Source of the DNA: Patescibacteria group bacterium
Lineage (GTDB): Bacteria; Patescibacteriota; Minisyncoccia; UBA6257; 02-FULL-45-10c
Length of the DNA stretch: 64,000 bases
Direction: 5' to 3'
Assembly: GCA_018969615.1 (NCBI GenBank)
Contig: JAGWYA010000003.1
Coordinates: 15,038 to 79,037, forward strand
Shown: piece after piece, positions 768 to 33,327 of the stretch
Layout: each line of letters starts with the position of its first letter
Numbering within the stretch: position 1 is the stretch's first letter
Position numbers and translations under genes: made by a program
Notes under the pieces: generated by a model
The model's input: the letters and a program-made list of their open reading frames with translations, nothing else
Database searches by the model: none
What the model was told of the DNA's origin: nothing

Positions 768-779
768 TTTTACCTCGTC

Positions 780-905
780 TCTACCCAAGTCAAGCAGTTG
801 ACTCGCTCGCTCACTCGAACCACGCTCGCTAGACACCCCTGCCTGCCAGCAGGCAGGTTCGGTTTCCAACGTCGCTTCGCTCCTGCCTTCCTAATACGGG
901 GTGCG
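780..905 (-). repeat. Copy R1 of a tRNA-associated ~150-nt repeat element (contains the cctgcctgccagcaggcagg palindrome and ctcgctcgc motifs); homologous to 32307-32506
   Basis: Shared blocks with R2: GGG(C/A)TCGAAC..., CGTTGGAA(A)CCG..CCTGCCTGC(T/C)GGCAGGCAGG, GAGCG(C)GAGCG...GTGAG on minus strand. Confidence 0.55.
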
Positions 906-972
906 GCTGGTTCGAGCCCCTCAAGCCCTTCCAAGAAATTCTAAACCCGCCAAATGGCGGGTTTAGAATTTG

Positions 973-3984: not shown

Positions 3985-4293
3985 TTAGGAAGCCGCTTCT
4001 GCGCTTTCTTCACGCGGAGCGCCGTGGCCCCGGGTGGAACCTTCCGGTTCTTCGATCTTGAGGTTCACGCGGGCATTATTGCGAATGCCGACGATCCTCA
4101 AAAGAGAGCGGATGGCCTTTGCGGTCGCGCCCTGCCGTCCTACGACCAGACCCATATCTTTCGGATCGACCGCGAGGGACAAGAGCACGCCCATTTCATC
4201 CACCTTCCGAGTTACCTTCACTTTATCAGGATTCTCGACAATGGATTTGACCAGATATTCAAGAAATTCTTCGTCGTGTGGTTTTTGTGCCAT
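3985..4293 (-). CDS. KH-domain RNA-binding protein (YlqC/UPF0109 family)
   Basis: GLVVGRQGATAKAIRSLL = KH GxxG motif; conserved position between rpsP and trmD. Confidence 0.8.
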   Translation of the reverse strand: MAQKPHDEEFLEYLVKSIVENPDKVKVTRKVDEMGVLLSLAVDPKDMGLVVGRQGATAKAIRSLLRIVGIRNNARVNLKIEEPEGSTRGHGAPREESAEAAS

Positions 4294-4909: not shown

Positions 4910-7084
4910 TTATTCCAACTTCAAACTCAATACCTTTGAAACGCCGTCCTCTTCCATCGTCACGCCGTACAGCACATTCGCCGCTTCCATCGTCGCGCGG
5001 TTATGCGTGATCATCAGGAACTGCGTTTTTTCGGAAAAATCCCGGACAATATCCGCGAAGCGTTTCGTGTTCTTTTCATCAAGCGCCGCATCCACCTCAT
5101 CGAGTACCAGGAACGGCGGCGGGCTTACGGAAATAAGCGCGAACAGCGCCGCGATGGACACCAAGCTTTTTTCGCCGCCGGACAGCATATCAAGCCCGTG
5201 GATCCGCTTGCGAGGCAAGCTGAGCTCGATCTCAATACCGAGCTGTCTCAACTCATCGGTCTCAAGATCATCCGCTTCCTGCTGATGGATCCGAAGCTCT
5301 TTTTCTTCCTCGGTCAGATCGGCCGCCTTCGGCTCCTCAGGTTTTTCCAGCACCAGCTTCGCCTTGCCGCCGCCGAACATCAGATTAAAGAACTTATCGA
5401 ACTCTTTATTGATCTTATCCAGAGATTCATGGAACTCATGGTCGATCTTCTGCTCGAGGTCCTTGATAAGCACCTCGAGGTCCTTTGCCGCCTTCTCAAG
5501 ATCGGTCAGTTGGCCGGTCAGGAACGTATGCCTCGTCTCAATATCCTCCGCTTCCTTAATGAGCGCGTGATCGACATCGCCGATCCCCGCGATCTCGCCG
5601 CGAAGCCGGAGCATTTTCCGTTCCGTTCCCGCAAGGTCCTCTACTGCCGGCGGGTTCAACGCAAGCTTTTCGATCTCTTCCATGGTCCGGCCGATCTGCC
5701 CCACCTGGACCTCGACATCCTGGCGGCGCAAATTGATCCGTTCCACTTCGAACAATAAACGATTCTTATCGTTCTCAAGCTTCATGATCTCCTCTTTCTT
5801 CTTTTCCACCTTCTCGAACGCCGCACGGAACTCCGCGTTGAACTGTTCGTACCCTTTTGCAGATTCCTCTTCTTTTTTCGAAAGCGCCGTCAGCTCTTCG
5901 CGGATCGGACCGAGCTTCTGCATCAGCGCATCCTTGGTTCCTTTCAGGTCCTGGATCTCGCTCTTCTGTTTTGAGTTCCGGTCGGTGAACTTGGCAACCT
6001 TCTCCTGCAACGCACGCAGCTCGGCATGAACCGCCTCAAGCGTCTGTTCTTTCAAAAGCTTCACAATGCTATCCTTCACTTCCTCCAGCGCGGTCAAAAG
6101 CTCGCCGGCGCGGAGGTCAACGCGTTCGCTCGCTACCACTGAGTTCAAGAATTCCATCTTCGCCTCCAATTTCCCGACCTCGTGCTCGATCTCTGAGCGC
6201 TGCGCCAAAAGCTGGTCGCGCTGTTTGCGGATATCGCCCATGCCCGCATGCTGCGGTTTCGCCGATTCGGTCTTTTCAAGATCTTTTTTCAGCGCCTCAA
6301 GTTCTTTCCGCTTTGCCGCCATCGCCGCATCAAGCGCCGCGATCTCCGGGTCGAACTTTTTCTTTCCTTCGGCAAGCTCCTTCAGACGGTTCGCATAATA
6401 CGCATTCTCAAGATCATGCAGTTCCTTTTCAAGATCGCCAAGCTTCCCCCACTTCGCGGTCTGGCGCTTCAGGAAACGCAAATGCGGCGCGATCTCTTCG
6501 ATCGTCGCTTTCACTTTTTCAATATTGATGGAGGTGTTCTTCAACTTCCGGTCCGCCTCATGCTTCTTCAACTGATACTGGCGTAAACCGAGAATTTCCT
6601 CGATCATGGCGCGGCGCTCCTCCGGAGTCACCCGCACGAACAGATCGCTCGAACCCTGGCTGATAATGGAAAGACCGCGCGTACCGAGGCGAACCTTCGC
6701 AAAAAAATCGATGATATCCTTCAGGCGAACCTCGTCCTTATTCAAATAATAGTGCGAATTCCCGTCCCGCTCGATACGGCGCATGATCGTCACTTCTTTA
6801 TAATCCACCGGAAAGAATCCCGAGCTGTTGTCGAAGGTCATGCTCACCTGCGCCATGCCCATGCGCGGACGCTTCGGCGTACCGGCGAAGATCAGGTCTT
6901 CCGCCTTGCCGCCGCGGAGGTTCTTCGCCTCCCGTTCGCCGAGGATCCAGCGAACCGCGTCAATGACATTACTTTTGCCGCTGCCGTTCGGTCCCACAAT
7001 ACCGGCAATACCGCCGGGAAAATCCAAAACGGTCTTTTGGGCAAAAGACTTGAATCCGAGAAGCTCAAGACGCTTCAAATACAT
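4910..7084 (-). CDS. smc: SMC-family chromosome segregation ATPase, unusually short (724 aa) with no evident hinge domain
   Basis: N-terminal MYLKRLELLGFKSF...GPNGSGKSN Walker A; C-terminal LSGGEKSLVSIAALFAL signature and LVLDEVDAALD Walker B; long coiled coil between; start set at M17 of track ORF. Confidence 0.8.
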   Translation of the reverse strand: MYLKRLELLGFKSFAQKTVLDFPGGIAGIVGPNGSGKSNVIDAVRWILGEREAKNLRGGKAEDLIFAGTPKRPRMGMAQVSMTFDNSSGFFPVDYKEVTIMRRIERDGNSHYYLNKDEVRLKDIIDFFAKVRLGTRGLSIISQGSSDLFVRVTPEERRAMIEEILGLRQYQLKKHEADRKLKNTSINIEKVKATIEEIAPHLRFLKRQTAKWGKLGDLEKELHDLENAYYANRLKELAEGKKKFDPEIAALDAAMAAKRKELEALKKDLEKTESAKPQHAGMGDIRKQRDQLLAQRSEIEHEVGKLEAKMEFLNSVVASERVDLRAGELLTALEEVKDSIVKLLKEQTLEAVHAELRALQEKVAKFTDRNSKQKSEIQDLKGTKDALMQKLGPIREELTALSKKEEESAKGYEQFNAEFRAAFEKVEKKKEEIMKLENDKNRLLFEVERINLRRQDVEVQVGQIGRTMEEIEKLALNPPAVEDLAGTERKMLRLRGEIAGIGDVDHALIKEAEDIETRHTFLTGQLTDLEKAAKDLEVLIKDLEQKIDHEFHESLDKINKEFDKFFNLMFGGGKAKLVLEKPEEPKAADLTEEEKELRIHQQEADDLETDELRQLGIEIELSLPRKRIHGLDMLSGGEKSLVSIAALFALISVSPPPFLVLDEVDAALDEKNTKRFADIVRDFSEKTQFLMITHNRATMEAANVLYGVTMEEDGVSKVLSLKLE

Positions 7085-7137
7085 AGGAATAGTATACCGC
7101 ATCAGCCGTTTTGAGGAAAATAAAAACTCCATCTGTA

Positions 7138-8937
7138 CTAGATGGAGTTGATGGCCGCATCGATCTCGGCGGCATGCAAGGTCTCCTTCTCCAGGAGCGC
7201 CTTGGCAAGCGCATCGAGCTTCGCACGGTTTTCCTGAAGCATGTTTCGGACATCCGCAATAGCGTCATCCAGAAGCTTCTTCACTTCGTTCTCGAGCTTC
7301 TCTTTGTTCGCCGGAGAAATATCCGTACCAGTCGAGCGACCCCAGAAGTCGCTGTTGTCCTTATAGACCACAGAACCCGCGGAGGTCATACCGAACTCAT
7401 AGACCATCCTCCGGGCGATCTGCGTCGCGCGATCAAAATCGCTGGACGCACCGGTTGTCACCTCTTCCGGGCTGAACACCAGTTCCTCGGCGATCTTGCC
7501 ACCGGCAAGGATCCGCAACCGGCCCAAAAGATATTTCTTGCTGTAGCTGTGCTTGTCTTCCTCGGGAAGCTGCTTCGTGAATCCCAACGCGGGACCCCGC
7601 GGAATGATCGTCACCTTGTGCACCGGATCAGAGCCCGGTATCAACTTGGCGACGAGCGTATGCCCGCCCTCATGGTATGCGGTCAATTTCTTTTCTTTAT
7701 CGGAAAGTTTCATCGACCTCCGCGCCTTCCCCATTGAGACCTTATCAACGGCCTCATGAAGGTCGGCTTGGTCGATCTCGACTTTCCTCTGTTTTGAAGC
7801 GCTCAGCGCGGCCTCGTTCAAGACGTTCTCAAGATCAGCGCCAACCATACCGGCAGTATCACGCGCGATCTCCACAAAATTCACGGATGCGGCAAACTTC
7901 TTGCCGATCGCATGCACTTTCAAGATCGCTTCGCGCCCCATCACATCAGGACGAGGGACTTCCACTTCCCGGTCAAAACGACCGGGGCGGACCAAGGCCT
8001 CATCAAGAACATCAAGGCGATTCGTTGCCGCAATGACAACGATCGGGATCCGCGTCTTCTCAAATCCGTCGAGTTCGACGAGAAGTTGATTCAACGTTTG
8101 TTCCCGCTCATCATGGCCGCCGCCAATAGCGACGCCGCGCTTCTTGCCGATCGCATCGATCTCATCGATGAACACGATGCACGGCGCGCTTGCGCGAGCC
8201 TCATCGAACAGCGCACGCATGCGCGACGCACCGACGCCAACGAACATCTCGATGAACTCGGACCCCTTCGCTGAAAGGAACGGCACACCGGCTTCGCCGG
8301 CGACCGCCTTTGCAAGGAGCGTTTTCCCCGTTCCGGGAACGCCGTTGAGGAGCACACCCCGCGGCACTTTGCCGCCGAGCGATGAGAACACCTTCGGGTT
8401 CCTGAGGAACTCAACGATGTCCGCAACCTCTTCTTTTGCTTCCTCGCATCCCGCCACATCGGCGAACGTTTTTCGGTCCATGTTATCTTTTGCGACCGTA
8501 AACCGCTTTCCGCCACGCGAAACGAATTTATTCACATCCTTGACCTGACCCTTCATCATCCAGATCCAAAGAAAGATCAAGACAGCGAAAGGGGCCATCT
8601 CGATGATCATTGTCAAAAAAGCGCTCGGAACCTTTTGAGCAACGCACGAAACGTCATGCGTCTCGGCATCTTTTCGGATCTCGTCCATTTGCGTTGATCC
8701 GATCGCACGCGTCGAAAGCTCCCGGGAAAGAGCGCCTTTTTCTGCAGGCGCGAGCGTCCCCGTGATCTCGAACGTGTTCGGGTCGAAGGACAGATCCTTC
8801 ACCTGCCCCGATTCGATGGCAGACTCCAATTGCTTCGGAGTCATCTCCATCGTTTGCGGATTGAGCCGGGCAAACAGAACGAACAGAAGACAGCCGGCAC
8901 AAAACCACATCAAAAGGCTCTTCACTTGCTTGGACAT
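7138..8937 (-). CDS. ftsH: ATP-dependent zinc metalloprotease FtsH
   Basis: [23 protein letters not shown] Walker [12 protein letters not shown] Walker B, second region of homology, HEGGHTLVA zinc site; start at ATG 8937. Confidence 0.9.
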
Positions 8938-9011: not shown

Positions 9012-9143
9012 GGCAGTAGCACGTGGGCAGTAATAAAAAGTTCCGATACACAATCGGAACTTTTTATTTTTCTTTTCTATTTTCTACTGCCCACTGCCTA
9101 CTTTCTATAGGACTATTCCTTCTGTCTACGGGCCACTCCCTAC
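9012..9143. repeat. Imperfect inverted repeats (GGCAGTAGCACGTGGGCAGTAA / TACTGCCCACTGCCTAC plus extra CCACTNCCTACT copy) flanking a hairpin-terminator between ftsH and rnc
   Basis: Direct reading of both strands; central hairpin agttccgatacacaatcggaact followed by T-runs. Confidence 0.5.
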
Positions 9144-9823
9144 TACCTATTCTCCAGCGCTTTCTTCGCCGCTTCGATCTCCGCGTCCTGTTTTGACATT
9201 CCTTCACCGCGTGCAAGCTCTTCCTCGCCGAGGTACACGCCAACCACGAAAACCTTTTTATGGTCCGGGCCTTTTTCCATGATCAGTTTGTATACCGGGG
9301 TCATCTTCTTTGTTGCCTGAAGCTTTTCCTGCAGCAAGCTCTTCGGGTCCTTGTACGACCCCTTTGCCAGGATCCCGGGGATCTCCGGAAGAATAAAGCG
9401 GTCGATGAACGGTTTTGCGGCGGCCATACCGCCGTCGAGATACAGCGCGCCGATCAATGCTTCCATGGCGTTCGCCAGGATCACTTCGCGCGCGCGGCCG
9501 CGGTCCTTGGCCTCGCCCTTCGACATGAGGATGTTCCCTTCAAGATCGAGCTGCGCCGAGATCGCCGCCAGGATCTGATAGTTCACCAACGCCGCCCGGA
9601 GCGTGGTCAGCTTCCCTTCCGGCTCGTGCGGAAAACGGGCATAGAGGTCTTCGGTCACCACCAGTTCAAGGACCGCATCGCCCAGGAATTCCAGGCGTTC
9701 ATTATGCGGCGTTTTCCAGGACGGATTCTCATTCAGATAGGAACGGTGCGTCAAAGCCTCCTGAAGGAGGCTCGGCTGAGAAAAGGTATATTTGATCTTT
9801 TTTTCCAATGAGACGGCTGACAT
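9143..9823 (-). CDS. rnc: Ribonuclease III
   Basis: ERLEFLGDAVLELVV RNase III signature, C-terminal dsRBD; start at ATG 9823. Confidence 0.9.
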   Translation of the reverse strand: MSAVSLEKKIKYTFSQPSLLQEALTHRSYLNENPSWKTPHNERLEFLGDAVLELVVTEDLYARFPHEPEGKLTTLRAALVNYQILAAISAQLDLEGNILMSKGEAKDRGRAREVILANAMEALIGALYLDGGMAAAKPFIDRFILPEIPGILAKGSYKDPKSLLQEKLQATKKMTPVYKLIMEKGPDHKKVFVVGVYLGEEELARGEGMSKQDAEIEAAKKALENR

Positions 9824-9916
9824 GCAATGCGATTGGACAGGTGCGTAATCGGGCAATGGACCATCCCCCGCTTACGCATCTGCGCAATAGATTAATGATA
9901 AAAATATGCTGTTCGG

Positions 9917-31438: not shown

Positions 31439-32242
31439 TTAAAGCTTAAGCGTTACGCTTACCGGACAATGATCGGACCCCGTGATATTCGCATGGATAT
31501 CCGCCGCGATGATCTTCTTTTTTAACTTTTCCGAAGCGAGAAAATAATCAATGCGCCATCCGACATTCCTCGCGCGGGCGTTCGCCCAATGCGACCACCA
31601 GGTATAATGGCCGTTCCCCTTATGGAACAGGCGGAAGGTATCCAAAAAACCGGCATCCAAGAACCGCTGGAACCCTTGCCGCTCTTCGGCAGTGTATCCG
31701 TGCTCCCCTTCGTTCTCTTTCGGGTTCGCAAGATCATCCGGCCCATACGCCACATTCAGATCACCGCAAAAAAGCACCGGCTTCTTCTTTTCCAATTGCT
31801 TGCAGTACATAAGGAACGCCGGATCCCACCGTTTCTCCCGGAGCGGCAACCGGCTCAAGTCGCCCTTCGCATTCGGCGTATAGACCGTCACCAGGAAAAG
31901 ATCCTTGAATTCAGCCGTCAGCACTCTTCCTTCTTTCGTCGAATCGCCGTACTGATCATTGGCAAGCTTATATTTTTTTATGATCGCGGCAGGCAGACCG
32001 TTCATAATGCTCAGTGGTTTGATCTTCGTAAAGATCGCAACGCCTGAATACCCCTTCCGGTCGGCCGAGTTCCAATACTCCTCATACTCCGGCAGATCGA
32101 CCTCGGACTGGTGCTGCATCGCCTTCGTTTCCTGGAGGCACACGATATCCGGCTTTTCCTTTTTGATAAAAGAATCGAAAAGCCCCTTGTTATGCACGGC
32201 ACGGAGCCCGTTCACATTCCACGAATATATTTTGAGATTCAT
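31439..32242 (-). CDS. xth: Exodeoxyribonuclease III / AP endonuclease
   Basis: MNLKIYSWNVNGLRA, CLQETK, GDLNVAY, SDHCPV EEP-family motifs. Confidence 0.88.
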   Translation of the reverse strand: MNLKIYSWNVNGLRAVHNKGLFDSFIKKEKPDIVCLQETKAMQHQSEVDLPEYEEYWNSADRKGYSGVAIFTKIKPLSIMNGLPAAIIKKYKLANDQYGDSTKEGRVLTAEFKDLFLVTVYTPNAKGDLSRLPLREKRWDPAFLMYCKQLEKKKPVLFCGDLNVAYGPDDLANPKENEGEHGYTAEERQGFQRFLDAGFLDTFRLFHKGNGHYTWWSHWANARARNVGWRIDYFLASEKLKKKIIAADIHANITGSDHCPVSVTLKL

Positions 32243-32286
32243 AGATACATCGTATCACAAAAACACCCGCTATCCGGATGTTTTTG

Positions 32287-32506
32287 TTTTGTGCCTGTGG
32301 CAGGGAATCTCACTCGCGCTCGCTGGATCTCACTGACAAGACGCTCGCGCTCTTTGGAACCTGCCTGCCGGCAGGCAGGCCCGGCGGTTCCAACGCCCCG
32401 CAAAATGCGGGGCTGCCTCCGCTCCGGAGAAACTTCCGTTTCCCCGACCCCCTTCCCGTTCGATCCCAAACACAAAAATAAATACCCCGCTCTGCGGGAT
32501 ATTTAT
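32287..32506 (-). repeat. Copy R2 of tRNA-associated repeat element, bounded by a 20-bp duplication of the tRNA-Met 3' end (ttttgtgcctgtggcaggga at 32287-32306 and 32507-32526)
   Basis: Exact 20-mer direct repeat; internal sequence homologous to 780-905 (R1). Confidence 0.6.
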
Positions 32507-32511
32507 TTTTG

Positions 32512-32583
32512 TGCCTGTGGCAGGGATCGAACCTGCGACCTCGGCCTTATGAAGACCTCGCTCTACCACTGAGCTACACAGGC
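32512..32583 (-). tRNA. tRNA-Met (anticodon CAT; elongator or Ile2-lysidine type)
   Basis: Reverse complement GCCTGTGTAGCTCAGTGGTAGAGCGAGGTCTTCATAAGGCCGAGGTCGCAGGTTCGATCCCTGCCACAGGCA. Confidence 0.75.
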
Positions 32584-33035: not shown

Positions 33036-33072
33036 ATAAACAATGCCCCGCATAGGGCATTTTTCTTTTCTC

Positions 33073-33249
33073 ATTGCGCGGTGAATGGGATTTCTCCTCG
33101 CCCGTCGCTCGCAGCGCACCACGTGCAGGCTCGCTCCTCCTTCAGAGCCGGGGTTTCCAAAAACATAAAGCAGTTTATGTTTTTGGAATACCCTTCAAAT
33201 CCCTCACATTCATGAATTATAAAAGCAGAGCTTTAGCTCTGCTTTTATA
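33073..33249 (-). repeat. Copy R3 of tRNA-associated element bounded by 21-bp duplication of tRNA-Asp 3' end (attgcgcggtgaatgggattt at 33073-33093 and 33250-33270)
   Basis: Exact 21-mer direct repeat; interior shares GAGCGAGC/GCGAG..GAGAAATCCC tail motif with R2. Confidence 0.55.
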
Positions 33250-33253
33250 ATTG

Positions 33254-33327
33254 CGCGGTGAATGGGATTTGAACCCACGATCTCCTCCGTGACAGGGAGG
33301 CGCTTTAGGCCGCTAAGCTACCACCGC
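33254..33327 (-). tRNA. tRNA-Asp (anticodon GTC)
   Basis: Reverse complement GCGGTGGTAGCTTAGCGGCCTAAAGCGCCTCCCTGTCACGGAGGAGATCGTGGGTTCAAATCCCATTCACCGCG. Confidence 0.8.

Follow-up and report, generated by a model that had tools for sequence, protein, structure and literature searches.

A small gene-less element bracketed by copies of a tRNA-Met 3' end in a Patescibacteria genome, and its relatives behind other tRNA genes

The tRNA-Met locus and its repeat

The window analysed here is a 64-kb stretch (64,000 nucleotides) of contig JAGWYA010000003.1 from a Patescibacteria group bacterium (assembly GCA_018969615.1), and the subject of this report is R2, a short element that lies directly behind a tRNA-Met gene within it. 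The Xth and GatA proteins encoded here are 100% identical to proteins recorded at NCBI for a Patescibacteria group bacterium. The genes follow one another along the minus strand as gatC-gatA, two small open reading frames (ORFs), tRNA-Asp, a convergent 88-aa ORF, tRNA-fMet, tRNA-Met, R2, xth, a gene for a PKD-domain protein, pheS and pheT. The elongator tRNA-Met(CAT) gene was placed on the minus strand at 32511/32512-32583 by both ARAGORN and the Rfam tRNA model (66.4 bits); it has no encoded CCA, and its discriminator A is at 32512. The 20-nucleotide (nt) sequence TTTTGTGCCTGTGGCAGGGA is present in the window as two exact copies, at 32287-32306 and 32507-32526. No third match was found in the window, even with three mismatches allowed, and none arose in 100 shuffles; the repeat reported in the preliminary description is thus exact and non-random. 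The same description took the second copy to be the true 3' end of tRNA-Met, and the ARAGORN and Rfam placement bears this out: the proximal copy (32507-32526) consists of tRNA positions 59-73 followed by the trailer CAAAA (4-5 trailer bases), so that the T-loop is where the repeat begins. The two copies are exactly 200 bp apart (32307-32506), and this interval is the one that had been named R2. The repeat can be extended to 41 nt at 80% identity, the 21 further bases being weaker, and it then reaches the hairpin that follows each copy (D17).

Independent assemblies show that the arrangement is real. The junction that runs from the body of R2 through the distal copy and the hairpin after it into xth is base-identical in two independent Logan assemblies (SRR32006840, SRR32006849); two Logan contigs stop inside R2, and the distal junction is the part that is reproduced for the window's own strain. 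The complete order of tRNA-Met, element, second copy and xth is spanned by three independent assemblies (contigs L098, L099 and L100) of a relative whose Xth and GatA proteins are 92% identical to those of the window, and the arrangement of tRNA-Met and element is found again in L127.

Anatomy of the R2 element

R2 is read here on the minus strand, in the orientation of its tRNA. Directly after the tRNA lies hp0 (32474-32510), a 17-bp near-perfect hairpin with A- and T-tracts that resembles a bidirectional terminator; its region has 43.5% column identity with L098, and in relatives its sequence has been replaced whilst its pairing is retained. Next, the tRNA 3' end recurs in inverted and degenerate form (T' and box, 32458-32473). 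The part of T' that is conserved, termed the box (GGGATCGAAC, 32458-32467), matches T-loop/T-stem positions 53-62 exactly as their reverse complement, supplies the 5' side of a closing helix termed P1 and is 100% conserved in L098; in L127 the inverted copy is longer than in the window (TGGCAGGGATCGAAC). A G/A-rich linker (32447-32457) leads to the Pa hairpin (32425-32446; CGGGGAAAC-GGAA-GUUUCUCCG), which is capped by a GNRA tetraloop, and then to an extra, lineage-specific hairpin (32394-32415; CAGCCCCGC-AUUUU-GCGGGGCG) found only in the window and L098. The Pb hairpin (32354-32393; UUGGAACC / GGUUCCAA) holds in its loop a nested 20-nt palindrome (CCTGCCTGCCGGCAGGCAGG, 32360-32379) that is missing from L127 and L131. 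The GAGCG-rich segment that follows (32307-32353) contains an internal duplication of a GAGCGAAGCGA..GAGTGAGAT motif and is 100% identical in L098, the unit being single in L127. The first bases of the distal 20-nt copy (32287-32306) pair with the box as the 3' side of P1, and the remainder forms an acceptor-strand tail; this copy is identical in L098 and L127 although the flanks have turned over. Beyond it lie the terminator-like hairpin hp2 (32259-32285), which is probably the original tRNA-Met terminator, and the start codon of xth at 32242. The 200 bp of R2 hold no credible ORF.

Sister elements and a census of tRNA genes

The same architecture is present 750 bp away behind tRNA-Asp (33253-33327), a case overlooked in the preliminary description. 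This element, R3 (33073-33270, minus strand), is bracketed by the 21-nt repeat AAATCCCATTCACCGCGCAAT at 33250-33270 and 33073-33093; it contains an hp0 (33215-33252), a box (GGGATTTGAA, 33194-33203) and a 15-bp hairpin (33155-33188), with a terminator hairpin, hp2, at 33042-33061. R3 is 91.5% identical to its counterpart in L098 and is conserved in L131. An acceptor-like pairing that had been a candidate in R3 was rejected, as it is broken by substitutions in L098. A third element, R1 (773-971, minus strand), lies behind tRNA-Tyr (972-1055), with its hp0 at 936-971, its box (GAGGGGCTCGAACC) at 909-922 and a palindrome at 838-857. R1 and R2 have a core of about 45 nt in common; otherwise the three elements share short modules only. 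The 3' copy of R1 has been lost in the window and is present in the relative L132. Between the terminator hairpin of R1 (715-771) and tRNA-Thr(TGT) lies a further non-coding stretch of about 225 nt (within 490-771) with two long hairpins (611-673 and 503-534), most of which is missing from L132.

A census was made of 95 tRNA genes in 0.95 Mb of fetched sequence, mostly from Patescibacteria, in which a gene was counted when at least 15 of 17 positions of its own T-loop-to-discriminator probe were matched 100-260 nt downstream. About one tRNA gene in six (15/95) was counted, and each of the 15 also has, 19-59 nt downstream, an inverted box that matches at 8-10 of 10 positions. From the non-cognate null, about 1.7 and 1.4 cases would be expected, and the upstream control never gave an exact match longer than 9 nt. 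Independent cases were found behind tRNA-Arg (L019, L057, L059), tRNA-Pro (L019) and tRNA-Gly (L092, L039). Across the family, which ranges in size from 70 to 220 nt, the left boundary of the repeat is always at T-loop positions 56-60 and the repeats include 1-5 trailer bases that are not part of the tRNA. Tandem or partial copies exist in L065 and L019. Every copy lies 100-260 nt from its own tRNA, and no copy was found at kilobase distances in the 0.95 Mb. The elements are linked to the upstream tRNA and never to one particular downstream gene. Reverse transcription of a mature tRNA, stopping at m1A58, was considered as the source of the copies and rejected because the genomic trailer (CAAAA, CAAT), and not CCA, is present in them and their boundaries span positions 56-60; a survey in which no group II introns were detected in Patescibacteria also counts against such a source (PMC13011429).

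Some short motifs recur in elements of distant lineages. Motifs of the GAGCGAAGCGA type that contain GCGAAGC are seen in the window (800-816 and 32307-32353) and in the elements of L019, L092, L127, L021 and L065; GCGAAGC is the sequence of an unusually stable mini-hairpin. Purine runs that resemble Shine-Dalgarno sequences (AAGGAGG, GGAGCGGAGG, TAGGAGCGAG) recur likewise. About 150-250 nt past the tRNA-Gly/Arg cluster of L020, L023, L039, L041, L059, L065 and L092 there are conserved clusters of DnaA-box-like sequences (CTGTGGATAA ... TATAAAGGACA), and the replication origin may adjoin this tRNA cluster in those genomes.

Conservation, covariation and folding

When the window is compared with the relative at 92% protein identity, column identity is 100% for the tRNAs, 96% for the 3' half of R2 with its copy, 91.5% for R3 and 83% for the 5' half of R2, against 70% for the promoter region, 56% for the neighbouring ORF and 37-44% for hp0 and hp2. 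The elements (83-96%) are thus conserved above their surroundings (37-70%), as a structured non-coding RNA would be. Over a larger distance, in L127 (78% GatA identity), R2 is still found behind tRNA-Met with its box and distal copy unaltered. Covariation is seen in five hand-aligned R2-type homologues: the Pa loop is of the GNRA type in all five (GGAA in three, GGGA and GAGA in the others), the Pa stem has two fully compensatory pair changes, and the Pb stem is perfectly paired throughout in spite of having four different sequences. The hp0 behind tRNA-Asp has 17 of 17 positions paired in the window as well as in L098, and two of its changes are compensated. A MAFFT alignment was given up as a basis for counting pairs because a gap had misplaced one strand of Pa in L130.

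P1, the helix between the box and the T-loop/T-stem part of the distal copy, appears in the minimum free energy (MFE) fold of R2 and of six of eight independent elements, and in these folds the acceptor-strand copy is left as a 3' tail. A minihelix mimic that would include the acceptor stem as well as the T-arm was rejected, as the inverted copy is conserved only over its T-loop/T-stem part. The minus-strand RNA of 32243-32510 has an MFE of -129.9 kcal/mol (z = -8.0), compared with -101.9 kcal/mol (z = -5.6) for the plus strand, and the raw MFE is lower on the tRNA-sense strand in seven of nine elements, not in all. The GNRA loops and the lower sense-strand MFE would favour, at most moderately, an RNA of the sense strand, but the z-scores of the elements are similar for the two strands. 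The window has an RNase III gene (9143-9856, minus strand), and the perfect hp0 stems of 17-20 bp, like the pairing of an ancestral full-length inverted copy with the tRNA-end copy, would be plausible substrates for RNase III.

The same body behind different tRNA genes

The R2-type body (GGAAGGGG.CGGGAAAC-GNRA-GUUUCCCG..CGGAAGG-Pb) has been found behind three different tRNA genes, namely tRNA-Met (window, L098 and L127), tRNA-Asp (L130) and the initiator tRNA-fMet (L131), and at each of these locations the box and the copy are cognate to the local tRNA. The bodies of L130 and L131 are 91% identical over 54 nt, whereas the GatA proteins of the two are only 75% identical. In L130 the elongator tRNA-Met is directly followed by a terminator, which is the element-free configuration. 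The tetranucleotide GAAC, the reverse complement of positions 53-56, precedes the body in seven of seven R2/R1-type copies. A second body, type A (the P2 hairpin with ACCTGGCT..GTAGCC), lies behind tRNA-Arg in L059 and behind tRNA-Gly in the syntenic L092. The distribution is patchy: within a conserved Arg/Gly/Pro cluster, elements are carried by 3-4 of 26 tRNA-Arg(TCG) genes, about two of 19 tRNA-Gly(GCC) genes and one of 10 tRNA-Pro(TGG) genes. A search for an empty site through xth relatives (80 metagenome loci, which were re-used as the background of the census) gave none that was comparable, the linkage of tRNA-Met and xth being gone at 62-70% identity.

Turnover at tRNA ends and a nested palindrome

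Several comparisons reveal changes at the DNA level around the ends of these tRNA genes. In the relative at 92%, R1 has an exact box, repeats 14 nt of the tRNA-Tyr 3' end and is free of the palindrome; the window's R1 has therefore lost the copy and gained the palindrome. A 77-nt insert lies directly 5' of tRNA-Asp in L098 (3784-3860; equivalent to L099, 5181-5257) and is absent from the window (at about 33328). It starts with a 14-nt duplicate of the tRNA-Asp 5' end (GCGGTGGTAGCTTA), continues with TCACCGC to form an acceptor-like hairpin and carries a TATAAT sequence; it is the 5'-side counterpart of the 3' duplications. A module of this insert (ATGGCGGGACCCCGC..GCGGTGG) recurs after tRNA-Thr in L132 (925-960). 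The tRNA-Thr(TGT) gene of the relative at 92%, on L132 (821-1000, compared with 417-489 in the window), is a different allele, with the acceptor GCCGACG/CGTCGGC instead of GCCACCT/AGGTGGC. About 65 nt downstream of it, contiguous with the ancestral flank, is a window-type tRNA-Thr 3' end from the middle of the T-loop onwards (AAATCC..CGGGAGGTGGCTC), and this remnant of the old gene has been split by an insertion of the palindrome. This locus shows a gene replacement with a breakpoint in the T-loop, and it shows that a distal copy can be the displaced ancestral end, in keeping with classical attachment-site (att) logic. Two further observations concern the same regions. In L127 (7229-7459) and L128 (4058-4367) GatA is identical and the sequences diverge completely right after the tRNA-Asp 3' end, so either the strains differ by a rearrangement, or DNA has been inserted, or the assembly is chimeric at this tRNA end. 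L098 also has extra inserts after its distal copies, of 84 nt after R3 (about 4110-4195; window about 33070) and about 41 nt after hp2 of R2 (about 5000-5040; window about 32255), the latter including GAGGTCGAACCGGC, similar to a further inverted T-loop box.

The 20-nt palindrome, CCTGCCTGCC(R)GCAGGCAGG, occupies hairpin loops of both R1 (838-857) and R2 (32360-32379) and also occurs in L132 (960-985), L130 (about 8420-8442) and L059 (about 8560). A scan of a genome collection with the palindrome and a TTCCAAC core found it with unrelated flanks in 15 genome contigs (L003-L017) from Patescibacteria, Bacteroidota and Bdellovibrionota. Its presence in unrelated phyla with unrelated flanks means that it is a separate, nested unit and not a marker of the R2 family. 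It resembles a miniature palindromic insertion that has been active recently in a very wide range of hosts, and no mention of it was found in full-text literature searches, the coverage of which is incomplete.

Absence of recombination genes

The 50 largest ORFs of the window are housekeeping genes or of unknown function, and with a cut-off as loose as E = 0.05 none of them gave a match to an integrase, a transposase or a reverse transcriptase. No gene for TnpB, IscB, Cas or an IS110-like protein was found in the 64 kb or adjoining the elements in related loci, and no integrase was found near the sampled tRNAs of the related contigs (the 95 tRNAs examined for repeats, on contigs and not in whole genomes). 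Neither the tRNA-Met end nor the copy junction, used as probes, matched any of 2.9 million viral contigs, and hence no corresponding attP was found among these; a generic P3 motif gave 21 matches there, all of them chance occurrences in coding DNA. R1, R2, R3 and the L131 elements were scanned against Rfam 15 at gathering and permissive thresholds, and only tRNAs reached threshold, all others (introns, ribozymes, ωRNA/HEARO, bridge-RNA-like and tRNA-like models) falling far below the cut-off. The related contigs contain small GIY-YIG ORFs beside xth or pheS (L102, 6880-7143; L103, 6805-7062; L130, 10973-11230). L127 has a faint LAGLIDADG-like ORF that abuts tRNA-Asp (6627-7235) and a Y1-transposase gene (PF01797) near ligA (668-1351). 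None of these genes is found in the window.

Interpretation: a proposed tRNA-anchored cassette

The reading that we favour, with moderate confidence, is that R2 is a non-autonomous, tRNA-anchored and gene-less cassette of about 220 bp, which arose by recombination centred on the T-loop and was then kept as a structured, probably transcribed element. Such a cassette would colonize a tRNA gene, or be rebuilt at it, through recombination or template switching whose breakpoints fall in the T-loop, which is universally conserved. The proximal copy would become the functional 3' end, and the displaced or duplicated 3' end would come to lie distally, an outcome that would be att-like whilst remaining non-autonomous. 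A fold-back step in the origin of the element is suggested by the long imperfect palindrome that hp0 makes with the proximal tRNA end and the inverted copy. The window and L098 have each seen a separate decay of the acceptor part of the inverted copy, whereas the box and the distal copy have not decayed. Once resident, the element would be kept by selection, most simply for the fold of its transcript. A transcript in the orientation of the tRNA may be made by read-through or co-transcription. In it the box would pair with the T-loop/T-stem part of the distal copy, so that P1 would enclose the hairpins and leave the acceptor-strand copy as a 3' tail, and P1 with this tail could mimic the 3' half of the tRNA. 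The mimic might be read by an enzyme that processes tRNA ends, by RNase III or by a recombinase acting in trans.

A number of points weigh against this interpretation. No clean pair of filled and empty sites was found for R2, the element being present in every relative that keeps this tRNA-Met. The census set was gathered through relatives of xth and gatA and is non-random. The covariation comes from five sequences, two of them closely related, in a hand-aligned stem table. The acceptor part of the copy is absent in the tRNA-Arg elements of L019 and L020 and in the window's R1, so that the 'tail' may be dispensable. The z-scores against shuffles are alike on both strands and G·U pairs are few, which makes the strand assignment weak, and a role at the DNA level (as single-stranded DNA or a cruciform) is therefore also possible. 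In the window hp0 looks like an efficient terminator, which would limit read-through. Finally, we know of no mechanism that yields a direct (16-21 nt) together with an inverted (10-25 nt) duplication of the target, and the recombination step is for this reason schematic rather than a demonstrated pathway.

A broader proposal can be put forward tentatively, as a possibility that we hold to be somewhat less than probable: that R2 represents an undescribed class of tRNA-anchored gene-less elements, in which a conserved, structured RNA body would pass from one tRNA gene to another and at each acquire anew an inverted and a direct copy of the T-arm and acceptor 3' strand of the local tRNA, giving a mimic of its 3' half that consists of a helix and a tail. 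Such elements would either have a new tRNA-linked function, as an RNA for processing, quality control or decoy, or be the guide or recognition module of a novel T-loop-targeting recombination system. Full-text literature searches, with incomplete coverage, returned no description of small cognate tRNA-tail elements, and such cassettes appear to be previously undescribed.

Alternative explanations

The alternative that survives best, although we consider it unlikely, is an immobile host RNA, that is, a 3' external transcribed spacer (3'ETS) or trailer RNA that originated by local duplication and fold-back and mimics the 3' half of its own tRNA. It could act as a processing or decay signal, or as a decoy for an enzyme or toxin that recognizes tRNA 3' halves, and its occurrence behind different tRNAs would reflect ancient paralogues and differential loss. 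The strong conservation, the covariation, the GNRA loops and the presence of P1 in most folds would all be expected of such an RNA, as would a repeat that is invariant over long divergence, stability at the strain level in 3+2 independent assemblies, and a constant tie to the upstream tRNA with no fixed downstream gene. What it does not account for is the patchy presence within a conserved tRNA cluster, the near-identical bodies at different tRNAs in genomes with 75% GatA identity, and the replacement of a tRNA allele; the trailer bases in the repeats point to duplication of DNA, tandem and partial copies exist (L065, L019), the copy has been lost from the window's R1, and hp0 would stop most transcripts ahead of the element. 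It is on the distribution, the bodies, the trailer bases and the allele replacement that the static RNA fails as an explanation, and these are the features for which the tRNA-anchored cassette is preferred.

The term 'att-like', used in the preliminary description, leads to a more conventional explanation, which we judge quite improbable: a prophage, integrative and conjugative element (ICE) or island was integrated by a tyrosine integrase in the T-loop of tRNA-Met and its interior was then deleted, leaving attL, about 200 bp and attR in the manner of a cis-mobilizable element (CIME). The term is apt in so far as the direct repeat is the tRNA-Met 3' end with a boundary in the T-loop, as at T-loop att sites, and brackets an insert that is not tRNA; the displaced ancestral tRNA-Thr 3' end of L132 and the differences in small insertions around the tRNA genes between the window and the relative at 92% point the same way. 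It does not extend to the insert itself, which is small, has no genes and no recombinase, and is distinguished by its conservation, its inverted box, its covarying hairpins and its GNRA loops. For a scar, shrinkage to 70-220 bp with the same layout of box, hairpins and copy would have to have happened independently at eight loci or more and with seven tRNA identities, and an inverted T-loop box is foreign to att scars. Kilobase-scale copies, integrases beside the 95 tRNAs or in the window, and a viral attP were all absent from what was searched, and body and repeat, in which compensatory changes are seen, are conserved far above their neutral flanks. The uniform small size, the layout shared by many loci and tRNAs, the inverted box, the conservation with covariation and the lack of a parent element in what was searched are all left unexplained by the decay of a prophage or island. 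The cassette reading accommodates these features as well as those on which the static RNA fails.

In a third explanation, which we regard as highly improbable, the element is the guide module of an RNA-guided system that homes to tRNA genes, with a scaffold (box, Pa and Pb) followed by a 3' segment of 15-20 nt identical to the tRNA gene, and with a nuclease or recombinase of the TnpB/IscB or IS110 type, encoded elsewhere, that would act in trans to target tRNA T-loops or re-insert there. The T-loop motif TTCRA would be the target-adjacent motif or the core, and the constant match of the adaptor to the local tRNA would be explained. The order of a scaffold and a 3'-terminal, target-identical segment of guide-like length is suggestive, as is the T-loop consensus TTCRA ahead of every genuine target; GAAC stands ahead of the body in the seven R2/R1-type copies, and a Y1-transposase gene is present in one related contig, L127. 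Against this, no gene for a TnpB, IscB, Cas or IS110-like effector was found beside any element or in the 64 kb, P1 takes up the first third of the supposed guide in a pairing that guides do not usually show, and nothing resembling an ωRNA, HEARO or bridge RNA was matched in Rfam. A guide aimed at an essential tRNA gene would also be self-targeting, and the resemblance to these systems is a putative one. Least likely of all is a chance match or an assembly or chimera artefact, which for practical purposes can be dismissed. Although repeats can give rise to chimeric contigs in metagenome assemblies, and R2 is where two Logan contigs end, zero chance matches are expected, the distal junction is found in two other read sets, and the whole arrangement is present in three assemblies of the related species and in L127.

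Comparison with known systems

Tyrosine-integrase elements that attach in tRNA genes are reportedly divided into 'sublocation' classes (Williams), of which the T-loop type is one. An example of a T-loop att site is the attB of mycobacteriophage Ms6 in tRNA-Ala (PMC1762012). At such sites, as at R2, a direct repeat from the middle of the T-loop to the 3' end brackets foreign DNA and the proximal copy restores the tRNA, and the distal copy of L132 is a displaced ancestral end. The R2 family differs in that it has no integrase, an insert of 70-220 bp rather than kilobases, cross-species conservation with covarying hairpins, an extra inverted copy of the T-loop, and the same body combined with different, always cognate, tRNA ends. 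Of the hallmarks of an integrated element, direct repeats of a tRNA 3' segment are thus present, whereas an integrase inside, a kilobase cargo and empty sites in close relatives are not. CIMEs are att-flanked integrated elements that lack recombination and transfer genes (PMC5704250), and they resemble R2 in being non-autonomous, gene-poor or gene-less DNA between attL/attR-like repeats at a tRNA 3' end. Unlike R2, they derive from, or coexist with, ICEs or integrative and mobilizable elements at the same att site, are kilobases long and have no conserved RNA-like fold. R2 shares with them att repeats without recombination or transfer genes, and no related autonomous element was found in the viral contigs and sampled tRNA loci, which are not whole genomes.

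Miniature inverted-repeat transposable elements (MITEs), repetitive extragenic palindromes (REP/REPIN), Correia elements and Rickettsia palindromic elements (RPE) are likewise small, hairpin-rich, non-coding and multi-copy, and the nested 20-nt palindrome behaves as a unit of the REP type. In the R2 family, by contrast, the bodies (R1 and R2) are not near-identical, no terminal inverted repeats are borne by the element and no short target duplications occur; the family is strictly linked to tRNA 3' ends and its flanking repeats are derived from the target. Indeed the inverted repeat formed by box and copy comes from the target, and the duplication measures 13-22 nt. In Escherichia coli, 3'ETS-leuZ is a non-coding RNA segment directly 3' of a tRNA, presumably freed by tRNA 3' processing and with a possible function of its own. 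The 3'ETS RNAs known to us are short, act as sponges of small RNAs and contain no direct or inverted copy of the T-arm and acceptor strand of their own tRNA; R2 shares their position 3' of a tRNA and differs by its copies of the tRNA end.

In Archaea, tRNA fragments and split or disrupted tRNA genes have been linked, in a model, to integrated elements (PMC3293823). These too are partial 3' (and 5') duplicates of tRNAs beside intact tRNA genes and are attributed to integration, whereas they involve integrase-bearing elements or bulge-helix-bulge (BHB) introns, and no conserved small structured body with a cognate inverted box has been described for them. Group I introns occur in the tRNA genes of Patescibacteria, including tRNA-Asp, at position 35/36 in the anticodon loop, with lengths above 200 nt and a self-splicing group I core (PMC13011429). 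Both they and the R2 family are structured, linked to tRNA genes and found in the same phylum; the introns interrupt the gene, whereas R2-type elements follow an intact tRNA and match no intron model. A group I or T-loop intron was accordingly rejected as the identity of the elements, which are as short as about 70-100 nt, have an intact tRNA upstream and gave no intron match. Of the features expected of a structured non-coding RNA, both the conservation and the covariation (in the five hand-aligned homologues) are present; of those expected of a guide RNA, no adjoining effector gene was found in the window or beside the elements of related loci, and the layout is compatible, with a 3' segment of 15-20 nt whose target is preceded by the T-loop TTCRA, although part of this segment is paired in P1.

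Implications

Direct repeats of tRNA 3' ends are routinely read as the footprints of phages or islands, and here the same signature marks a gene-less, conserved and structured cassette. The cassette recurs behind many tRNA genes of a poorly understood phylum with minimal genomes, each time with adaptors matched to its own tRNA. Tools for finding islands and prophages that are keyed on tRNA-end repeats will mis-call such loci. If the elements are functional RNAs, they would add a new layer of tRNA gene expression or protection in organisms that have few regulatory proteins; if they are mobile, they would represent a T-loop-directed recombination without a recombinase encoded in cis, one that is able to replace tRNA alleles, as with the tRNA-Thr of the relative.

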